From a virus (Duplodnaviria > Heunggongvirae > Uroviricota > Caudoviricetes), in IMG/VR virus record IMGVR_UViG_2558860473_000005, positions 1 to 41,949 of that record: a stretch of 41,949 nt of DNA. One strand, 5' to 3'. Each line of letters opens with the position of its first letter. Position 1 is the stretch's first letter. The notes under the pieces were generated by a model. That model worked only from the letters and a program-made list of their open reading frames with translations. It did not search any database and was not told where the DNA came from. Both the position numbers and the translations under genes were made by a program. Positions 31,524-41,949 of this stretch are shown here, piece by piece.

Positions 31524-32855
31524 ATGGCTACGTGGCAACAGGGTATTAATTCTGGTGGTTTTCTGGCTGGAATTGGTGCGCAAAATGAGAATGCGCCAAA
31601 GGCAAGCGACATTAACGCAACGCTTGGTCTGATTCGCGAAAACAATGAACTGGCTCGCTCAGGTGCAAATAACGTTGGTCTGACCGCGTTACGTGGTCTG
31701 GCTGGAGTTGCTGATATTTACAATCAGGAACAGCAACAGAAAGCTATTAGTGCGTTCAATAAGGTTCACGCTGATGCATGGGCTTCTGGTGATCCATCGG
31801 GACTATTTAAGTTTGCCCGGGAAAATCCAGCGTTTGTTGCACAGGCACAACAGGCGTTTTCCGGTCTTAATGAGCAGCAACGCAACGATATGGGCGATTT
31901 AGCCATGAGGGCTAACGTCGCTCTTTCTCAGGGACCGGAAGCCTACAGTAAATTCATTACTGACAACAAGGACAGGTTAAATCGCGTTGGTGCTAATGCT
32001 GACTGGATGATTCAGACAGGTATCCAGAATCCAGAGCAGCTATCACACATGCTGACTACTATGACGCTAGGGGCTGTTGGTCCGGATAAAATGCTGGATT
32101 ATCAGGATAAGATGGTTGGTCGCCAACTTGAGAAAGGGCGATTGGATGAAAGCATCCGTCAGGCTGACATGGAGAACGCGAGAGGATGGGCAAATATCCA
32201 AAACGCTCAACTAGACAGGGCTCAGCGGGCACAAATGCATAATGATAACGTAGCCCTGAAGTTGCAGGAATTAGGGATGAAACAACAGGAAAGCGGAAAG
32301 ATTGACCCAAAACTTGTTCGAGATCTGAATAGTGATATTAATGGGTTCTCAAAGAATTATTCTGCAATGCGCAGTGCTTCTGACAACCTACAAGCCCTTG
32401 GGAAGCGCAACACTCCAGCCGCGCAGTTGGGAATGATTTTCAACTATATGAAATCGCTGGATCCGCAATCTGTGGTACGCGAAGGTGAGCAAGTGCAGGT
32501 AAAACGCACTGATGGAATATTTGGCACACTTGGTAACTATGTTAGCCAATTATCTAACGGCAAGATGCTGAATAATGAGCAAGTCCAAGACTTAATCAAC
32601 ACCTCAAAACTGATGGCAAATACTGAAGGCGAAAAGTTTAACCAGCAAATGGATGATTATCTTTCAACTTATGGAGATTCTCTCCCCAGCGGACTAACTA
32701 AGCAATTGCAATCCAGAAAAGCCAAGCTGTATGAAGATATTCAGCAGCCTGCGCAACAACAGAGCAATAACCAACAACCGACAAATACCCAACAGCAGCA
32801 GAGTCAATCCGGATCATATACCTCAAAATCAGGCATTCAATTTACGGTGGAATGA
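31524..32855 (+). CDS. Ejection protein, P22 gp20-like, 443 aa
   Basis: Size and synteny; Q/N-rich low-complexity segments. Confidence 0.7.
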
Positions 32856-34978
32856 TGAAAGTAACTGCAAACGGAAAGACATTTACCTTCCCTGATGGTA
32901 CGAGCACGGAAGATATTGGCACCGCCATTGATGAGTATTTTGCTGGTCAGGCTGTTCAGCAACAAACAGTTAATCAGGCCAATAATGAACCAGCGCGTGA
33001 AGAACCATCATTGATGCAACAAGCTGGCGATTGGCTCACTGGTGGTCAAAGTGCAGGGCAAATTGCAGAACAGGCTGGTCGTGGTCTGGTAAACATACCA
33101 TTTGACGTATTGCAGGGTGGCGCAAGTCTGATTAATGCAATCAGTCAGGGGCTTGGTGGGCCAAAAGTATTGGATGATGTCTATCGTCCAGTCGATCGAC
33201 CGACAGACCCTTACGCGCAAGCCGGTGAAACAATTGGTGGGTATCTCCTGCCAATTGGCACAGCGGCAAAAGCTGCTGGAGCGCCAGCAAAGCTCGCTGG
33301 AGATATCGGTTCCGCAGGAAACATGATTGCAGGTTCTCTTGCTGATGCTGCAAATCAGGAGGGCGATTTTGCACAAAATGCTGCCATTAACGGTGGTATC
33401 AATATTGGTGCTCAAGGCGTTCTTTCAGGTGTCGGGCGCGTTATTGCGCCAAGGGTTTCACAGGCTCTTGGTGGTGCAGCACTGAATTCTGCTAATGATG
33501 TTTCCAGGATGGCAAAGTCAGGTGCTGGGCGTCAGTCAATTGCCAGTCAGGCCGCTAATGTGTCCGAAGATGTAGCAAAAGCGGCTGAGTCTGCTGGAAT
33601 TGATATAAACGCATTAACACCAGGAATGCGATCTGGAAGTCGTGGAATTGCACAAGCCGAAGGCGCATTGGCATCAACACCAGGAATCGTTCAGGACGCC
33701 CATCAGGCAGCATTTAACGAAATATCATCAAAGTTAAGTCGAAACCTTGATGAATTTGGGGCCGCATCTGGAACGGCATCAGAAAAAAGTGCGGCTATAA
33801 AACAAAGGATTCTTCAAAATCTTGATCAGATGAAGGATGCCGAGCGCGCGGCATGGGATGACGTGCGGTCAACAATGCCAAATCAAAAATCAAGAATGCT
33901 AAATGGTAATGCCGTTATTCAGGCAGAGCGATCTGCTGGCATACCGCTTACTCCTGAAATGAAACAGTTTGTTCAGGCAAACAATCAAGGTGGAGTAACA
34001 TTTGATGGCATGAAAGCATGGAGAGCGAAATTTGCTGATGCGGAGCAAAAATATAAGCGTAGCGGAGAGGCAAATGCGGCAAGGAGAGCAGGGGAAATAC
34101 GCCGGGCAATTACTGATGATATGCGCACAATGGCGGAAAACGGCGGATTTCTTGATGACTGGCAAAAAGCTAATGATCTGTCTAAAGCGAGGTTATCAGC
34201 ACAAGAGAGTGCAGAGTCTGTTTTCGGGCGTGATTTGGCAACAGATGCACTGATTACGAATGGAGTAAAATCCCTTCAATCATCGTCAGCTAAAGGTCTT
34301 AATGGTCCTGCTGGATTCCATTCTATGATCCGCGCGCTGCCAGAATCAGAGCGTGTTCCTGCTATATCATCAATGTTGCAAGATGCTATCTCGCATGGTG
34401 TACGTGGTGGCAAAGCTGATGCAGCAGGAATTAACCATATCGCAGAGATACTCACTCCACAAAATGTAAAAGCCATTAGCCGATATTCCTCAGAGCTTGG
34501 AAGAATTGCAGATGCATATGGCACTCTTGCAAGAGCAGCAGTGAAACCTCAGCAGTATATTGAAAGAACAGGGAGAACTGCCAATGTACTACGCGATCTG
34601 GATGCTGGTTTATCCAACGTCACATCAACAGTGTTAAATGCAATTGCTAACTCAACATCAGGTGCCATTGTTGGTGGAGCAGGAGGGGGCATTGCAGGCG
34701 CTGCCGCAGGTGCTTTAGTTGGCGCTGGGTTAAAAGGCGCTGTATCTAAAATTGCCACCACACGTAGTGGTCGATATGCGATAGAGAAAGCTGTTCAGGA
34801 AGCCACCAAAGCAGTAAGAGCAGGCGGAAGCAAAGAAGCATTACTGGCGGCGGAACGCAGATTTATGGCAAATAAGGCCGCCGTAAAAGCAATACGTGAT
34901 ACAGTCGGAAACGAAGAGTTTCAGCGCTTAGCGAGGGCTGGTATTGTGGCATCGCTAAGCGGAATGGCACGGGAGTAA
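32852..34978 (+). CDS. Ejection protein, P22 gp16-like, 708 aa
   Basis: Size and synteny; Ala/Gly-rich. Confidence 0.7.
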
Positions 34979-35311
34979 TTAATCATCCATGGATGGATTG
35001 AGCTTATCTCGTGTTGATGTGGCGGTTTTCCCTACATTCCTAAGCCAAGCTTTCAAATCCTTGATATTGTCATTGATTTCATGAATATCTTCCTTTTTTA
35101 ATCTGTCAATATTATTTTCAATAATTTCAATGGATTGCTCAATATCAGATATAGTGAATGATAGTTTGCTCTTCTCATCTGTTATTGAGTTTTTAAGTAC
35201 TTCGTTCTCAGTCTTGAGGTCAGATATCTTTTGCTTTAAAGATGCCAGTTGGCACTGAACCACAATGAGTGCGATAGCTATCACGACAAATGTTGCATAC
35301 ACGCTAACCAC
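34979..35311 (-). CDS. Membrane-anchored coiled-coil protein (N-terminal TM helix then coiled coil), 110 aa; cassette gene C
   Basis: Hydrophobic YATFVVIAIALIVVQ segment followed by heptad-like K/E-rich sequence; GTG start; AT-rich by eye. Confidence 0.55.
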   Translation of the reverse strand: MVSVYATFVVIAIALIVVQCQLASLKQKISDLKTENEVLKNSITDEKSKLSFTISDIEQSIEIIENNIDRLKKEDIHEINDNIKDLKAWLRNVGKTATSTRDKLNPSMDD

Positions 35312-35322
35312 CTTGGTTTTAT

Positions 35323-35676
35323 CTACTTGAGGACTAATCCGTTAAGTGCATCAAGGATTTTAGATACGTAACTACCGAAAATGTAGGTGCAAAAAGCAAA
35401 AACAACCGTGACGACAGCACCGATAGCCTTAATGGTTGTTTTCATTGTGGTGATACTAGTTTCAATACTGCTAAGCCTGGTGTCAATTGACTTCACGTCT
35501 TTTTGAATGATCTCAATGTCACGCTTGATATAGCTGACATCAGACTCTAACTTTGCGACCCTTGATTCCATGCCATCACCTCCTTCGCCTCCAGACCTGT
35601 TCTTATCCTTTGTGTTCTCAGGATGGATACGAGATATGTTTTTTTCACTAATTGATGTTTCAATTATATCAAGCAT
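35323..35676 (-). CDS. Tail-anchored coiled-coil membrane protein (XhlA-like architecture), 117 aa, or 82 aa from the internal start at 35571; cassette gene B
   Basis: Coiled-coil segment then C-terminal hydrophobic helix AIGAVVTVVFAFCTYIFGSYV; strong GGAGG RBS before the internal Met; 8-bp overlap with gene A if the long start is used. Confidence 0.55.
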   Translation of the reverse strand: MLDIIETSISEKNISRIHPENTKDKNRSGGEGGDGMESRVAKLESDVSYIKRDIEIIQKDVKSIDTRLSSIETSITTMKTTIKAIGAVVTVVFAFCTYIFGSYVSKILDALNGLVLK

Positions 35677-36079
35677 CTTTCACATGACTCACGGAAAAGT
35701 AGGCTTGCGCAGAATGCACTAGAGTGTTGTCTTTGCTGATGGATACTCGAATTAAGTAATCCCCGTCAGCATCAAGTTTGCATTTATCGAAATGCATAGA
35801 CATCGATGTTGCCAAGGTGTTCCTGATCTCATTGTGTCCTTTTGCCTTAATCCATACGCCTTTATCACCGCTTACACTGATTTCTAACTCATTCTCGATT
35901 CTATAGAGACAAGCTGAAACCCAATATGGTGTATCATGAATTAAACCGAGAAAGTGAACCTGAAAATCAAGGTCAGTAGTCACAGGTAACTCATCTGTCT
36001 CCATGATTAACATGGGTGATTTTTCATCATTTTCAGACTTATGGTAAGGAAAAAGGAATGCTATTTTTTCAGTGTTCAT
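35669..36079 (-). CDS. Hypothetical soluble protein, 136 aa; cassette gene A
   Basis: Start overlaps the mnt stop by 4 bp (translational coupling); no recognisable family. Confidence 0.55.
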   Translation of the reverse strand: MNTEKIAFLFPYHKSENDEKSPMLIMETDELPVTTDLDFQVHFLGLIHDTPYWVSACLYRIENELEISVSGDKGVWIKAKGHNEIRNTLATSMSMHFDKCKLDADGDYLIRVSISKDNTLVHSAQAYFSVSHVKDA

Positions 36080-36318
36080 TTCCCATCCCTTAAACGTTTA
36101 AGTACATTGATGGTTACATCAAGAGCCTCTTGCTCTGACTTTGCCAGTTGCTGACTGCTTAATGGTATAACCTGCTCTTTATGCATTTTTATCCACAACT
36201 GGATAGCAGCAATAATCTCAGCATTGATAGAGCGTCGATTAGTGGCAGCAATATGCGTAAGTTGCTGTTTTATCTCATCTGGCATTCTTACGTTGAATTG
36301 CGGATCATTTCTAGCCAC
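36076..36318 (-). CDS. mnt: Mnt-like ribbon-helix-helix repressor, 80 aa
   Basis: MARNDPQFNVRMPDEIKQQL... resembles P22 Mnt; divergent from arc; GTG start with GGAGA RBS. Confidence 0.75.
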   Translation of the reverse strand: MARNDPQFNVRMPDEIKQQLTHIAATNRRSINAEIIAAIQLWIKMHKEQVIPLSSQQLAKSEQEALDVTINVLKRLRDGK

Positions 36319-36411
36319 GTCATTCTCCTTTTATTTATTGACATGCTAGAACGGTAGTAGTACGCTTTCAATAGTAGTACGGTGCTATCATTTGATGAAA
36401 TGGAGGTGAAT
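36319..36411 (+). promoter_or_regulatory. immI-like divergent promoter/operator region (Pant-like -35 TTGACA 36338-36343; direct repeats TAGTAGTAC at about 36355 and 36373)
   Basis: Intergenic region between divergent mnt and arc; candidate -35/-10 elements on both strands overlapped by two 9-bp direct repeats. Confidence 0.45.
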
Positions 36412-36573
36412 ATGCAAGGTGCAAGAAAAATGCCGCAGTTCAATTTGCGGTGGCCTAAAGAAGTATTGGATTTGGTACGCAAGGTGGCGGAAGAGAATGG
36501 TCGGTCTGTTAATTCTGAGATTTATCAGCGAGTAATGGAAAGCTTTAAGAAGGAAGGGCGCATTGGTGCGTAA
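36412..36573 (+). CDS. arc: Arc repressor (ribbon-helix-helix), 53 aa
   Basis: [53 protein letters not shown] is near-identical to P22 Arc by recall; GGAGGTG RBS. Confidence 0.9.
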
Positions 36574-36577
36574 AGTT

Positions 36578-36609
36578 GAAGCCCCAACTGCTGGAACAGT
36601 CAGGGCTTC
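36578..36609 (+). promoter_or_regulatory. Extended hairpin in the arc-ant intercistronic region
   Basis: GAAGCCC...GGGCTTC with inner ACTG/CAGT stem; no U-run on either strand. Confidence 0.35.
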
Positions 36610-36641
36610 GGTATCAACAAAACTTACGAGGTATTATTGAT

Positions 36642-37532
36642 ATGTCAAGCTTAGCAAAGTCAACTGTAAATTGCACTAATAGCATCATCATTTCTGACGT
36701 CAAGATTCATATGGATTCAGAGGGGCGTTACTCGCTTAATGACCTTCATGTAGCGTCTGGGAAGGAGGAAAAACATCAGCCAGCTTTCTTCATGCGTAGA
36801 AATGAAACTATTGAATTAATTAATGAAATTTTTAATTCTGCGGATATGCAGAATAAGAATCCCGTCCTTTCTAAGAAAGGTCGATATGGTGGAACCTACG
36901 TGTGCAAGGAGCTTGTTTACTCCTACGCCATGTGGATTAGTGCATCCTTTGCGCTGAAGGTTATCCGTGCATATGACGCAATGGTTACTGCCACACAAGA
37001 TAGGAAGGCTATTGGAGGTAAAACTTCAGTAGCTGAACGCACACCGCTACGAGATGCAGTAAACATGCTGGTAGGAAAGAAAGGACTTCGCTATGACGAT
37101 GCATACAATATGGTTCATCAGCGTTTTGGTATTGACAGCATTGATGAACTTTCAATTGAACAAATCCCGCTGGCCGTAGAGTACATCCACAGGGTAGTGC
37201 TTGAAGGTGAGTTCATTGGCAAACAAGAGAAGAAAACCAACGAGCTTTCTGCAAAAGAAGCAAACAGCCTTGTATGGTTATGGGATTATGCCAACCGTTC
37301 ACAGGCATTATTCCGCGAACTGTATCCGGCGCTAAAACAAATTCAATCGAACTATTCCGGCAGATGCTACGACTACGGTCATGAGTTCTCGTATGTTATC
37401 GGAATGGCGAGAGACGTTTTAATAAACCACACACGAGATGTTGATATTAATGAGCCAGACGGACCAACGAATCTTTCCGCATGGATGAGACTTAAGAATA
37501 AAGAATTACCTCCTTCAGTACATAACTACTGA
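36642..37532 (+). CDS. ant: Antirepressor Ant (KilA-N domain N-terminus), 296 aa
   Basis: KilA-N-like segment ([24 protein letters not shown]...); downstream of arc as in P22 immI; GAGGT RBS. Confidence 0.8.
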
Positions 37533-37570
37533 CAGATAACCAACGCAACGACCCAGCTTCGGCTGGGTTT

Positions 37571-37593
37571 TTTTATGCCCAAAATTCACCGTA
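37571..37593 (+). terminator. Rho-independent terminator after ant
   Basis: Hairpin CCCAGC-ttcg-GCTGGG followed by TTTTTTT. Confidence 0.75.
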
Positions 37594-37632
37594 GCCATGC
37601 TGCGGCGATTCCTTGTATCTGGAGCAAATTAA

Positions 37633-39441
37633 ATGACAGATTCAATAAATGCCAATGTTGTAGTGAGCATGCCATCGCAACTCTTCACTATGGCTCGTTC
37701 TTTTAAAGCCGTAGCCAATGGCAAAATTTATATCGGTAAAATTGACACTGACCCGGTAAATCCTGAAAACCAGATTCAGGTTTATGTAGAGAACGAAGAC
37801 GGCTCTCACGTTCCTGTTTCTCAACCAATCATCATTAACGCTGCTGGTTACCCAGTATATAACGGACAGATTGCCAAGTTTGTAACCGTGCAAGGCCATT
37901 CTATGGCTGTTTATGATGCGTATGGTGCACAGCAGTTTTATTTTCCTAATGTGCTGAAGTATGACCCTGATCAGTTTGGTCCAGACTTCAAAGAGCAGTT
38001 ATCTCAATCAGGGGAATACATTAATGATGATTCAAAAGGTGATGCATTAATTGGCGTAAGACAGCCCGTTGCCGGGTCGGTAGCTATCACACAGCATGAT
38101 AAAAACGCACAAATAATCAACTTAAAAGATTTTGGTGCTAAGTGCGATGGTGTAACTGATGACACAGTGGCAATTCAGGCTGCTGTAGCTGCTGCGCATA
38201 CTGGTGTCCGTATAGTTCAACCTGCAGGGGTTTGCCTTACATCTCAGCCGTTGTCATTCACTAGTCCTGCATTTTGGTATGGAGATGATGGCGCTCGCAT
38301 TAAGCTCATTAGTGGCAGTCATGACTATGTTATGGAAATTGATCTTCGCGGGCCTAGTGGTTCGTTCTGGGGTTATGGGTCACATATTGAAAACATTATC
38401 TTTGATGGTGGTGGTCACGCAAAAGATGGCCTTTCATTGCGTGGTGTTATCGGAGGTATATTCAAAAATATTCGTGGGACAAATATATCAAGGACCGCTA
38501 TTCATGAATGGTGGACCCAACTTTGCCACTATGAAAATATTCAATGCAGTAATAATATTGAAGCATTCCAAACAACCCCTATTCACGGAATCTTATCTGA
38601 TTGTGAGTTTGGAACTGGTAATGATCGTGGGTCTTCTGCAAATACTTACATGAATACCACTATTGAACATACCTCTGGTAGTGGGATTTGTGGGGTGTTT
38701 ATGTCTAATTGTACATTTATAAATGGCACATCAGAAGGTAACGATATTGGCATTGAGTTTGGTCACGCTACTGATGATAGAAACCAATCAGTTGGGAATT
38801 CAGTTATTGGCATGGATCTTGAAGTTAATTCTTTAACTGATGTGTTATTACATAAAACAACATATGCAAATGACTTTATTGGTCTAAAAGCTGGTTATTC
38901 ATCTCCAGCCATTCAGGTGCAAGGCTCATATGCTAATAGCTTTATTGGTGGAGTAAGCAGTGGTATAGATTTTGACTCATCATCGCATGATAATAAAGTA
39001 ATAGGTATGAATCTTTTAGGCAACGATTCTATCATCGTAGATAACGGGTTAAGAAATTCATATGAGAATATTTTCAATATTTCATCTGGAGCTAAAAAAG
39101 AAAGCACTAACCCTTATCCATCGCGTAGCAACAATATAATTTCATCAAATGGTACTGTGCAAATTAACCCATTTTTATCATCATACTGTGTTGTGTCGGC
39201 TACTGGTTCACCAATTAATGTTACGTCTGTAGCAAAAAAATTAGACGGTGCGACTATTGATATGACTATTCATAACATTTCTGGATCTGATGAATTAATA
39301 GTAAACTGGTCTTCTGACTTCAGAGTTTCTGGATGGACAAGCCCGGCAACAGGGCGCCACCGGTCTATAAGATTTGCTTATGATGCAAACTACGGATACT
39401 GGACTGCTATATCTATGAGTCAGTCAGATATTCTGAACTAA
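37633..39441 (+). CDS. Tailspike protein: P22-type N-terminal head-binding domain plus divergent beta-helix receptor-binding domain, 602 aa
   Basis: First ~115 residues match the P22/Sf6 tailspike N-terminus by recall; the rest has repetitive G/N/S/T-rich strands typical of parallel beta-helix depolymerases. Confidence 0.85.
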
Positions 39442-39453
39442 GATTTATGCTGT

Positions 39454-39476
39454 GGGGGGGATTATTCCCCCTGTTT
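39454..39476 (+). terminator. Terminator between the convergent tailspike and acyltransferase genes
   Basis: Hairpin GGGGGG-attatt-CCCCC followed by TGTTTTACTTT; overlaps the acyltransferase stop. Confidence 0.55.
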
Positions 39477-40595
39477 TACTTTCCTCATATCCACCAGTTT
39501 ACCAGGGATGCTCATAAATATCTTATTTCTAATCTTGTTAGTAAGTATCACTTCAATATATTTATGCGAAAGAAATGCAATAAAAATTGATAAAATTAGT
39601 AAAATAGTGAACCCGTATACATTGTGCATCACACCTGGATTATTAGCCTCAACCTGCCATGAAATGTAACTACCTACCTGGTTATGAAGCAGATACCATG
39701 AGAAGGAAATATCACCAAGCATTACAAAAAATGATGGTGTAATTTTTGTTATAACTTCATCATTTATTACGAACGCCACTAAGAGGAAGTATGCAATGAT
39801 GCCTGTCTTTAAATTATAACCTTCAATAGAACCATTGAAGACTGCAGTCATAAAAATTAATGCCGATATAGCAGTGAATGAGTATTTTAATCTATTGCTC
39901 CATGATTTTGCTGAACGCACTGTGTGCCCAGCAAGGATGCCTAAAGCAAATTCAATTACTATCGGATTTGTTAAAAAGCTAAGTTCTGGAGTACCAGTTT
40001 TATAACCTGAAGTGGATAATGTTACATTTCCAGTCAACATATATCCTACAAGGATAGTTGTCATTATCCATACGACTATGCCAGAGGTTCTTTTATTGAA
40101 TAATAAACAAAGTGCGAATACAAGATAGAAGTATAATTCATAGTTAAGCGTCCATCTAATAACAAATATACCACCAGCATCAACATACAAAGGAGGGTAC
40201 GCATCCGTAAAAGGAGAGAATGTTAAAGCACTCAGTAAGTTTTCCACCTTAGCTTGGTCAACGAAGATTCCAACTTCCCATGTAAAGTAGAAAGCTGTAA
40301 AGAGAGCAATAAAATATGTAGGAAAAATCCTTGTGAGTCTTTCTACGGAAAAGAATATAGCAGACTTTATACCAGATGGCTTACGGCTAGTGATATGCAT
40401 CATAATAAAACCACTTATTACGAAGAACAAATCAACACCAGCAGAACCCCAAGATAAATATTTATTAGGGATAGTTAAATCTCCATACAATGGTGATAAC
40501 CAAAATCTGTAGTGAAAAAGAACTACAGACAATGCAGCTAATCCTCTAAGTATCTGTACTGAGCTAAGTTTATTGTTCATTATTAAACCGATCAC
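39462..40595 (-). CDS. Acyltransferase family 3 (OafA/Oac-like) integral membrane O-acetyltransferase, 377 aa
   Basis: Multi-TM protein with acyltransferase-3-like N-terminal motif (ILRGLAALSVVLFHY); very AT-rich by eye; between tailspike and int, as oac is in Sf6. Confidence 0.75.
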   Translation of the reverse strand: MIGLIMNNKLSSVQILRGLAALSVVLFHYRFWLSPLYGDLTIPNKYLSWGSAGVDLFFVISGFIMMHITSRKPSGIKSAIFFSVERLTRIFPTYFIALFTAFYFTWEVGIFVDQAKVENLLSALTFSPFTDAYPPLYVDAGGIFVIRWTLNYELYFYLVFALCLLFNKRTSGIVVWIMTTILVGYMLTGNVTLSTSGYKTGTPELSFLTNPIVIEFALGILAGHTVRSAKSWSNRLKYSFTAISALIFMTAVFNGSIEGYNLKTGIIAYFLLVAFVINDEVITKITPSFFVMLGDISFSWYLLHNQVGSYISWQVEANNPGVMHNVYGFTILLILSIFIAFLSHKYIEVILTNKIRNKIFMSIPGKLVDMRKVKQGE

Positions 40596-40791
40596 TTTCT
40601 GTAAATGTCATTCACATGATTATGCGATAAAATCCATAGTAATCCATTATAAATTTTTCTATATGAAACATAAGAAAAATTCACTGAGTTGTTGAATTGA
40701 TACATCTCATCTTTCAACGACAATGTCTACAAAACACACAAAGCTTTGCACTGGATTGCAATGATTTGTGTCATTCGATAGTTAATGTGGA

Positions 40792-41949
40792 TCACTCCAC
40801 CTTTTCATCAAGCCAGTCCGCCCACCATTGCATCATTTCTCTGCGCTTATCGAGATACTGAGCATGGTTGTAAATCCCGCGCACAGAACCGCCGTTGGCA
40901 TGTGCCAGCTGCACTTCAATAGCGTCAGCAGGCCATTCGTGCTCGTTCATAATCGTGCTGAATTCATGCCTGAATCCGTGACCGCTTTCCAGACCTTCAT
41001 AGCCGATTTGTTTGATCACAAGCAATACCGCGTTCTCGCAGATTGGCTTCTTCTTATCGTTGCGCCCGGCAAAAACAAACTCTGAGACTGGTTTGGTGAT
41101 TGAGCTTAGCGTAGTGAGAAGTTCAACTACCTGGTCTGACATAGGAACCACATGAATTTTGCGTCCCTTCATCACGCTGGCGTCGATGGTGATAATCCTG
41201 TTTTCAAAATCGACGTTCTTCCATAGCATAGAACGAAGCTCTTTCGTTCTTAGGGCTGTGTAGCGTAAAACTTTGGTCGCAATGAGCGATACGATACTTC
41301 CTGAAAATGTTGCCAGTGCTTTGTTGAATGCCGGGATCTGGTCTGCAGGAAGAAACGGGAAGTTCTTCTTGCGGTATCCTTTCATGGCGTCAGCAAGGTC
41401 AGGTGCCGGGTTATATTTAGCCCTGCCGGTGACAATAGCGTAACGGAAAACCTCGCCGCATCTTCTGCGGGCTTTATTGGCTCGTTCCATTGCACCGCGA
41501 TCTTCAAATCTGCGGATTACTTCCAGCAGTTGCATTGGCTCAATATCCTGAATTTCAAGGCCGCCGATGATAGGTAAAATGTCGTCATCAAACATTTTTG
41601 CAAGTTCAGTCGCATACCCTACTGACCATACTTGCTTCTTGTGCTCGTACCATTCCTTGTAAATCGCACTAAAGGAATTGTTGTTAGACGAAGCCTTTTT
41701 CGCCTTTACCGGATCGATGCCAACCGAGATGTCTTTCCTCGCGGTCCATGCCTTATCCCTTGCCTCCTGCAAAGTCATAAGCGGATATTTTCCTACGGTC
41801 AGTATTTTTTCCTTACCGTCAATCTTGTAGCGAAGCTGCCATACCTTTTTCCCGGATACAGGGACATAAAGGTACAGGCCATTACCATCGAGAAGGCGGT
41901 ATGGTTTTTCTTTCGGCTTTGCTGCTTCAATCTGCTTAACGGTGAGCAT
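40792..41949 (-). CDS. intS: Tyrosine integrase (P4-type phage integrase family; IntS/Sf6 Int-like), 385 aa
   Basis: N-terminal SAM-like domain and C-terminal catalytic domain with conserved R...HGFRH...Y residues; start codon at the last 3 nt of the window. Confidence 0.85.
   Translation of the reverse strand: MLTVKQIEAAKPKEKPYRLLDGNGLYLYVPVSGKKVWQLRYKIDGKEKILTVGKYPLMTLQEARDKAWTARKDISVGIDPVKAKKASSNNNSFSAIYKEWYEHKKQVWSVGYATELAKMFDDDILPIIGGLEIQDIEPMQLLEVIRRFEDRGAMERANKARRRCGEVFRYAIVTGRAKYNPAPDLADAMKGYRKKNFPFLPADQIPAFNKALATFSGSIVSLIATKVLRYTALRTKELRSMLWKNVDFENRIITIDASVMKGRKIHVVPMSDQVVELLTTLSSITKPVSEFVFAGRNDKKKPICENAVLLVIKQIGYEGLESGHGFRHEFSTIMNEHEWPADAIEVQLAHANGGSVRGIYNHAQYLDKRREMMQWWADWLDEKVE

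Follow-up and report, generated by a model that had tools for sequence, protein, structure and literature searches.

Which host glycan is read by the tailspike encoded in IMG/VR virus record IMGVR_UViG_2558860473_000005, and how did the spike acquire the domain that reads it? The window analysed in this study is the whole stretch of DNA of that record (41,949 nt). The tailspike gene lies at 37633..39441 on the plus strand, starts with ATG and encodes a protein of 602 aa that is identical to WP_023568677.1 / EST72719.1. Exactly this protein is encoded on contig AHHP01000003.1, which is 100% identical to the window over positions 31633-41949. The tailspike belongs to a P22/Sf6-like (Lederbergvirus-type) prophage of Escherichia coli P4-NR. 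Starting from its domain architecture, its mosaic junctions, a cassette shared with another prophage type and the O15 serotype of its hosts, we believe with reasonable, not full, confidence that the spike is an endoglycosidase of the O15 O-antigen and that it was acquired together with an acyltransferase that protects the lysogen. The spike would then be a trimer that cleaves O15 chains, and acetylation of these chains would make the lysogen immune.

Domain architecture of the tailspike

The original prediction described a conserved P22-type head-binding domain, up to about residue 115, fused to a divergent beta-helix receptor domain. The head-binding (tail-attachment) domain was found at residues 1-115 (37633..37977, +). 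It matched PF09008 (Head_binding) in Pfam over residues 4-114, with an E-value of 2.4e-65 and 218 bits against a cut-off of 24, and the solved N-terminal domains of the P22 and Sf6 spikes matched as well. DNA matches to deposited phages covered only nt 1-344 of the gene (HK620, 95.6%) or nt 20-377 (Sf6, 88%). When the PDB was searched by sequence, the P22 spike matched up to residue 123 and Sf6 gp14 up to residue 188, and no solved structure matched residues 201-602. The remainder of the protein is divergent and rich in G, N, S and T, as had been noticed: these four make up 37.0% of residues 116-602 vs 23.5% of residues 1-115. Over its full length the spike matched phrog_18522 'tail protein' (1052 bits).

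An AlphaFold2 monomer model was built from a 37-sequence alignment and had a mean predicted local distance difference test score (pLDDT) of 84. From the N-terminus, the model shows a small dome of beta structure (residues 30-107), a linker of low confidence (109-134, pLDDT <50), cap helices, then a long series of short strands such as a right-handed parallel beta-helix has (about 160-490), and finally a C-terminal beta domain (about 498-602). Pfam gave a short match to PF12708 (pectate-lyase-like) at residues 161-219, in the first rung. The central right-handed parallel beta-helix of P22-like tailspikes is thus present in the model, which confirms the predicted beta-helix receptor domain and is silent on the substrate. 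Comparison with characterised tailspikes, which had been suggested together with structure prediction, gave no close relative; the best tested one is 47% identical.

Sliding-window identity separated the spike into an anchor (residues 1 to ~115), a stretch of linker, cap and first rung (~116-200) and a type-A body (~201/226-602). These comparisons show the gene to be a mosaic and place its junctions near residues 115-134 and 200-225. The mosaic that had been proposed, an N-terminal anchor joined to a different receptor domain, therefore stands, with three parts in place of two. The second part (residues 116-200; 37978..38232, +) consists of a flexible linker, the cap helices and the first beta-helix rung, and is common to spikes with a different receptor domain. 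It is about 55-60% identical to Sf6 by a manual count from the alignment. Residues 101-200 are 92-100% identical to a P22-type spike with a 53%-identical type-B body (P0010), and residues 151-200 are 96-100% identical to another spike that also has a 53%-identical type-B body (P0012). The third part is the type-A receptor-binding body (residues 201-602; 38233..39441, +), with beta-helix rungs, an acidic ladder and a C-terminal beta-sandwich (about 498-602). On other anchors, this body is 72-100% identical. Type-A and type-B spikes, whether from P22-type or phiV10-type prophages, hardly differ over residues 151-200, which makes this stretch a plausible site for homologous exchange.

The receptor module was found on several anchors. 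E. coli, Salmonella and Citrobacter have it on the P22-type PF09008 anchor, in proteins of 592-602 aa. A 691/692-aa form has a first part of 219 residues that is 79% identical to the phiV10 tail fiber (Uetakevirus-type). The module is also present in PF18668-type spikes (604-609 aa), in larger Kuttervirus TSP2 (tailspike protein 2) proteins, and in one protein with a T7-tail-fibre domain. On most other anchors the common region starts at residues 131-135.

Membership of GH28 was considered and rejected. The NCBIfam galacturonidase models have cut-offs of 800 and 500 bits, and the tailspike reached 20.6 and 17.9. A close homologue of the phiV10 type is named 'glycosyl hydrolase family 28-related' by NCBI, and the model scores do not back this name. 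The tailspike is of the GH28 fold superfamily and not a member of GH28 itself.

The receptor domain and the convergent acyltransferase

The gene directly 3' of the tailspike is convergent with it and encodes a membrane acyltransferase of the Acyl_transf_3 type (39462..40580, -), 372 aa long from its ATG; the open reading frame (ORF) reaches a GTG at 40595. The protein matched PF01757, an integral-membrane family, with an E-value of 6e-23 over residues 12-342, and phrog_3333 'O-acetyltransferase' with an E-value of 2e-89. It is a putative O-antigen O-acetyltransferase, and its gene a putative lysogenic-conversion gene. A convergent gene directly 3' of the tailspike in a temperate podovirus is the arrangement of oac-type genes, and this layout also occurs in Sf6, phiV10 and the loci L009, L011, L014 and L015. 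Between the convergent genes lies a terminator-like G+C-rich hairpin with a T run (39452..39474, +). The hairpin is also present in the prophage of E. coli QML220601, and Sf6 has an annotated terminator at the matching position.

The results showed that a block of 2538 bp (38034..40571) is shared with L009, an E. coli prophage of the phiV10 type (blastn, 97.7% to L009 8669-11204). The block begins at about residue 134 of the spike, spans the terminator and stops a few codons short of the acyltransferase start; its guanine+cytosine (GC) content is 0.374. No blastn match between the window locus and the L009 locus was found outside this block, and the N-terminus of the L009 tailspike is 79% identical to the phiV10 tail fiber. 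One contiguous block of such identity in an unrelated phiV10-type prophage indicates that the two genes are transferred jointly, as a single cassette.

The 3' half of the tailspike gene had been described as AT-richer than the 5' part. This was true (GC 0.364 vs 0.431, with a window mean of 0.466), and the 3' half lies below every 900-bp window of the 37.6 kb upstream (mean 0.475, sd 0.035, minimum 0.387). The fall starts near residue 300, away from the domain junction, and carries on through the acyltransferase gene (GC 0.345), so the description needed refinement in its extent. The AT-richness at the 3' end of the tailspike gene marks the 5' boundary of a foreign block, low in GC, which reaches about 40770. 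Within this block, a segment of 1288 bp that bears the acyltransferase gene (39487..40774, blastn junctions; GC 0.337) is lacking in the QML220601 prophage. There the match runs up to 39486, and the tailspike gene stands directly before intS in the annotation (L001).

The two genes were paired by type. In L014, an E. coli locus with a P22-type spike, the body (residues 201-602) is 99.3% and the acyltransferase 99.5% identical to those of the window; in L009 the values are 99.5% and 97.8%. In L011, a prophage remnant of Salmonella, both have diverged (88% and 78%). With the window itself, type-A body and type-A acyltransferase are thus paired in four contexts. The type-B body of L015, on a phiV10-type spike, is 53.6% identical and pairs with an acyltransferase of an unrelated lineage (25%). 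It is quite possible, if a little short of probable, that the receptor domain and the acyltransferase convergent with it make up a mobile two-gene cassette of a 'recognise and then mask' kind, which crosses Lederbergvirus- and Uetakevirus-type phages as well as E. coli and Salmonella and diverges jointly. Such a cassette would define the first O15-specific depolymerase with a matching O15-modifying enzyme.

Alternatively, the acyltransferase gene could be an unrelated moron at a permissive insertion spot, with no functional tie to the receptor of the spike. The gap between tailspike and int is a known site of moron or conversion genes in Sf6, two prophages with these spikes have no acyltransferase gene (QML220601 and L008), and the Salmonella locus bears two different ones. 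A moron is fairly unlikely, nevertheless, given that the ends of the shared block coincide with the beginning of the receptor domain and with the first acyltransferase codons, and that body and acyltransferase types go together in four contexts, which span two phage genera and two host genera, and have diverged in parallel.

In the Salmonella enterica contigs (L011 / L012, 6792-10030), the spike with the 88% body belongs to a decayed remnant of a prophage, and two different genes of the Acyl_transf_3 type come after it. Of these, one is related to that of the window (78%), and the second resembles the gene paired with the type-B body in L015, judged on N-terminal sequences only. Among 5426 complete E. 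coli genomes, no copy of the window's acyltransferase gene was found.

Link to serogroup O15

The accessions AHHP01000001..107 belong to E. coli P4-NR, which was isolated from bovine mastitis and has the serotype O15:H21/H54 (Leimbach 2017 supplement; Vet Res 2020;51:77, PMC7294653). The paper on P4-NR and P4-96 does not mention the prophage. Among the same 5426 complete genomes, the receptor domain was found by megablast and blastn in one, QML220601, and a single match gives no wider serotype statistics. The O-antigen locus of QML220601 carries wzx and wzy of the 'O15 family', fnlA, wbjC and wecB for L-FucNAc, and two glycosyltransferase genes. The O15 repeat unit is reportedly a neutral trisaccharide of Gal, L-FucNAc and GlcNAc, and the gene content of the cluster fits this. 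The chromosome of QML220601 also has a transposase gene of the ISAs1 family in the interval from galF to the O15 wzx (L005 11467-12603). A member of the cluster of phiV10-type spikes was recorded from 'Escherichia coli O15:H16'. All three typed hosts of the receptor domain are thus O15, against a background of 1.8% (O15 wzy in 100 of the 5426 complete genomes, including strains named O15); the number is small and two of the prophages are related. Studies have shown that prophage spikes of P22-like and phiV10-like genera usually track the O serogroup of the host (PMC10408124). Because all three typed hosts are O15 and such spikes track the serogroup, we infer O15 specificity. No O15-specific tailspike was found in the literature, the deposited phage genomes or the PDB searched.

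The spike may instead be functional with another receptor, such as a capsule (K antigen), colanic acid, enterobacterial common antigen or a non-O15 O-antigen, and the O15 hosts would then be a coincidence of lineage. P4-NR and QML220601 have similar prophages, apparently at the same locus adjacent to yfdC, which may reflect one event. The closest tested relative, TSP2 of phage SPTD1, targets Citrobacter sedlakii. Capsule depolymerases exist among beta-helix spikes of this fold, and one PHROG that matches the N-terminal part of the tailspike is annotated as colanic-acid degrading. That last match covers only residues 2-230, the shared anchor. An independent phage type with a 99.5% identical body also came from an O15 strain (the O15:H16 record), which sits poorly with coincidence at the background frequency given above, as does the usual tracking of serogroup by such spikes. 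We consider a non-O15 receptor unlikely.

Candidate catalytic residues

Seven carboxylates (D258, E310, E345, E368, D395, E397 and D403) were invariant across 37 homologues down to 25% identity, and they are candidate active-site residues. In the AlphaFold2 model, several of them lie at strand ends of successive rungs (343-345, 366-368 and 395-397). Catalytic carboxylates at the strand ends of rungs are the pattern of the P22, Sf6 and HK620 spikes. Genes for uronic acid were not found inside the O15 gene cluster at the QML220601 locus, so a hydrolase is favoured over a lyase. If the O15 polymer is neutral, as given above, this too speaks for hydrolysis. For a homotrimer with endoglycosidase activity on the O-antigen of the host, the invariant acidic residues are suggestive only. 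That the receptor domain merely binds its glycan, or acts by another chemistry (lyase, deacetylase) and not as an endoglycosidase, is improbable in view of the seven acidic residues kept in all 37 homologues at rung strand ends, and a lyase would find no uronic acid for beta-elimination in the product of the O15 cluster.

Proposed mechanism and points against it

We propose that the N-terminal dome (residues 1 to ~110) would anchor the presumed trimer on the phage tail. The beta-helix and the C-terminal beta-sandwich would bind O-antigen chains of the host, with the E. coli O15 O-antigen as the likely substrate, and most probably hydrolyse them, so that the virion reaches the outer membrane. 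Recombination would have brought in the receptor-binding part and, in the same cassette, the acyltransferase gene that converges on it from downstream. In the lysogen, the acyltransferase most probably O-acetylates the same O-antigen, and phages with this spike would be shut out. This masking would amount to superinfection immunity, as shown for the Oac proteins of Sf6 and phiV10.

Several points weigh against the proposal of an O15 endoglycosidase with a protective acyltransferase. The acyltransferase shares only 26% identity with Sf6 Oac, and BLASTP found no similarity between it and phiV10 Oac. By sequence it appears to be of the same Pfam family as these two and of a different lineage, and its substrate could be another glycan. 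Pairing of the spike with an acyltransferase is frequent and not obligatory, as the two prophages without one show. The O15 link consists of three lysogens, and the prophages of P4-NR and QML220601 are 97-98.7% identical, apparently at one insertion locus next to yfdC, and maybe not independent. The receptor domain occurs in just 1 of the 100 O15 complete genomes. In addition, the O-antigen of a lysogen, if it is altered by conversion, need not equal the receptor of the phage. The family alignment against the Sf6 spike (hhalign) ended at about residue 288 and did not place the catalytic residues in three dimensions, and the closest relative with experimental data is only 47% identical.

Prophage context

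The tailspike gene follows genes for ejection proteins and for Arc and the antirepressor, in the order Inj_translocase, P22_gp16, Arc, Arc, Ant (KilA-N + P22_AR_C), tailspike and int. This is the position of P22-like tailspike genes, next to the att/int end. The integrase gene (40792..41949, -; Pfam) marks the prophage end beside the tailspike and conversion module, and its product is 99% identical to Sf6 Int. On the P4-NR contig, the next called gene past the integrase encodes a protein of the formate/nitrite-transporter family. The prophage of QML220601 has tRNA-Arg and yfdC after its intS.

Just past the antirepressor gene, 64 nt before the tailspike start, is a strong hairpin that resembles a terminator and has a T run (37550-37569, +). 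Late expression of the spike would then need read-through or antitermination. Late expression of P22 gene 9 likewise occurs through read-through or antitermination.

The window opens with a complete gene for a LacY-family sugar symporter of 415 aa (1-1248, +; PF01306, E 2e-193). This gene probably belongs to the bacterial flank, in which case the window comprises a host flank, the prophage and the start of int, and is no free phage genome. The same symporter gene is present in some deposited 'phage' records, where it is labelled sucrose permease.

A patch of low GC (about 0.39) that separates the gp16 ejection gene from the Arc-family genes contains three small ORFs (107, 117 and 136 aa; 34979-36079, -). 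They matched only the PHROGs 5962, 6136 and 5893, which have no known function, and no Pfam family scored above its cut-off. The QML220601 prophage has other genes at this position. These ORFs could be morons or exclusion genes.

Significance

The tailspike is of an ordinary kind, a mosaic P22-type spike; this one is uncharacterised, and current understanding is not overturned by it. In this study, we add a testable prediction of an O15 substrate, a finer map of the mosaic, and a receptor domain that travels with a probable O-antigen acetylase across phage genera. If the cassette pattern is general, the acyltransferase beside a prophage tailspike would tell the glycan of the spike, and vice versa. 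Serogroup O15, to which the bovine mastitis strain P4-NR belongs, takes in extraintestinal and animal-pathogenic lineages of E. coli that are widespread. Once validated, an O15 depolymerase would be a useful module for typing and engineering, given that the homologous domain of SPTD1 has already been swapped successfully. Co-transfer of the receptor domain and the O-antigen acyltransferase offers a testable case of attack and self-protection travelling jointly.

Comparison with known systems

The best matches among deposited phages were the tailspikes of the Escherichia siphophages hz69 and vB_EcoS_GZMU_E2010, with 57% identity over 99% of the receptor domain. They differ in their siphovirus context, related proteins having PF18668-type or unassigned N-termini, and they are uncharacterised. 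In identity they stand about level with the type-B homologues, which makes a different specificity quite possible. The best tested relative, and the sole one with an experiment, is the PhiSH19-type TSP2 of the Kuttervirus SPTD1 (WBL99284.1). It is 47% identical across about 92% of the receptor domain, a level that does not justify assuming the same glycan. When the C-terminal region of SPTD1 TSP2 was put into phage CBA120, the host range moved to Citrobacter sedlakii (PMC9965104). This shows that the receptor-module family is a transferable determinant of host range; the glycan read by the spike of the window is not settled thereby. SPTD1 differs in having the anchor of a branched Ackermannviridae TSP complex on a lytic myovirus, and the paper on Ackermannviridae TSP subtypes assigned no receptor to SH19-type TSP2.

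HK620 is nearest in the anchor, through the 5' 344 nt given above, and much of the remaining prophage is about 96% identical to HK620-like phages. In phiV10 (Uetakevirus), the tail fiber gene is likewise followed by a convergent oac, which the phiV10 record annotates as acetylating the O-antigen of the host for superinfection immunity. It differs in its own receptor domain, which targets O157, and in an anchor unrelated to PF09008. Sf6 resembles the window most in layout, with the same order of tailspike (+), acyltransferase (-) and int (-) and a terminator between the convergent genes. Its gp14 is about 92% identical in the head-binding domain of the solved N-terminal chains and aligns up to residue 200 with 75% identity. 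Sequence similarity ends at residue 200, and alignment by structure gave 15-17% identity beyond it. The Sf6 spike is an endorhamnosidase for the Shigella flexneri O-antigen, and the middle gene of Sf6 is oac, the O-antigen acetylase. The principle of attack and self-protection that travel jointly is already established for Sf6 and phiV10, so known biology is extended here and not changed.
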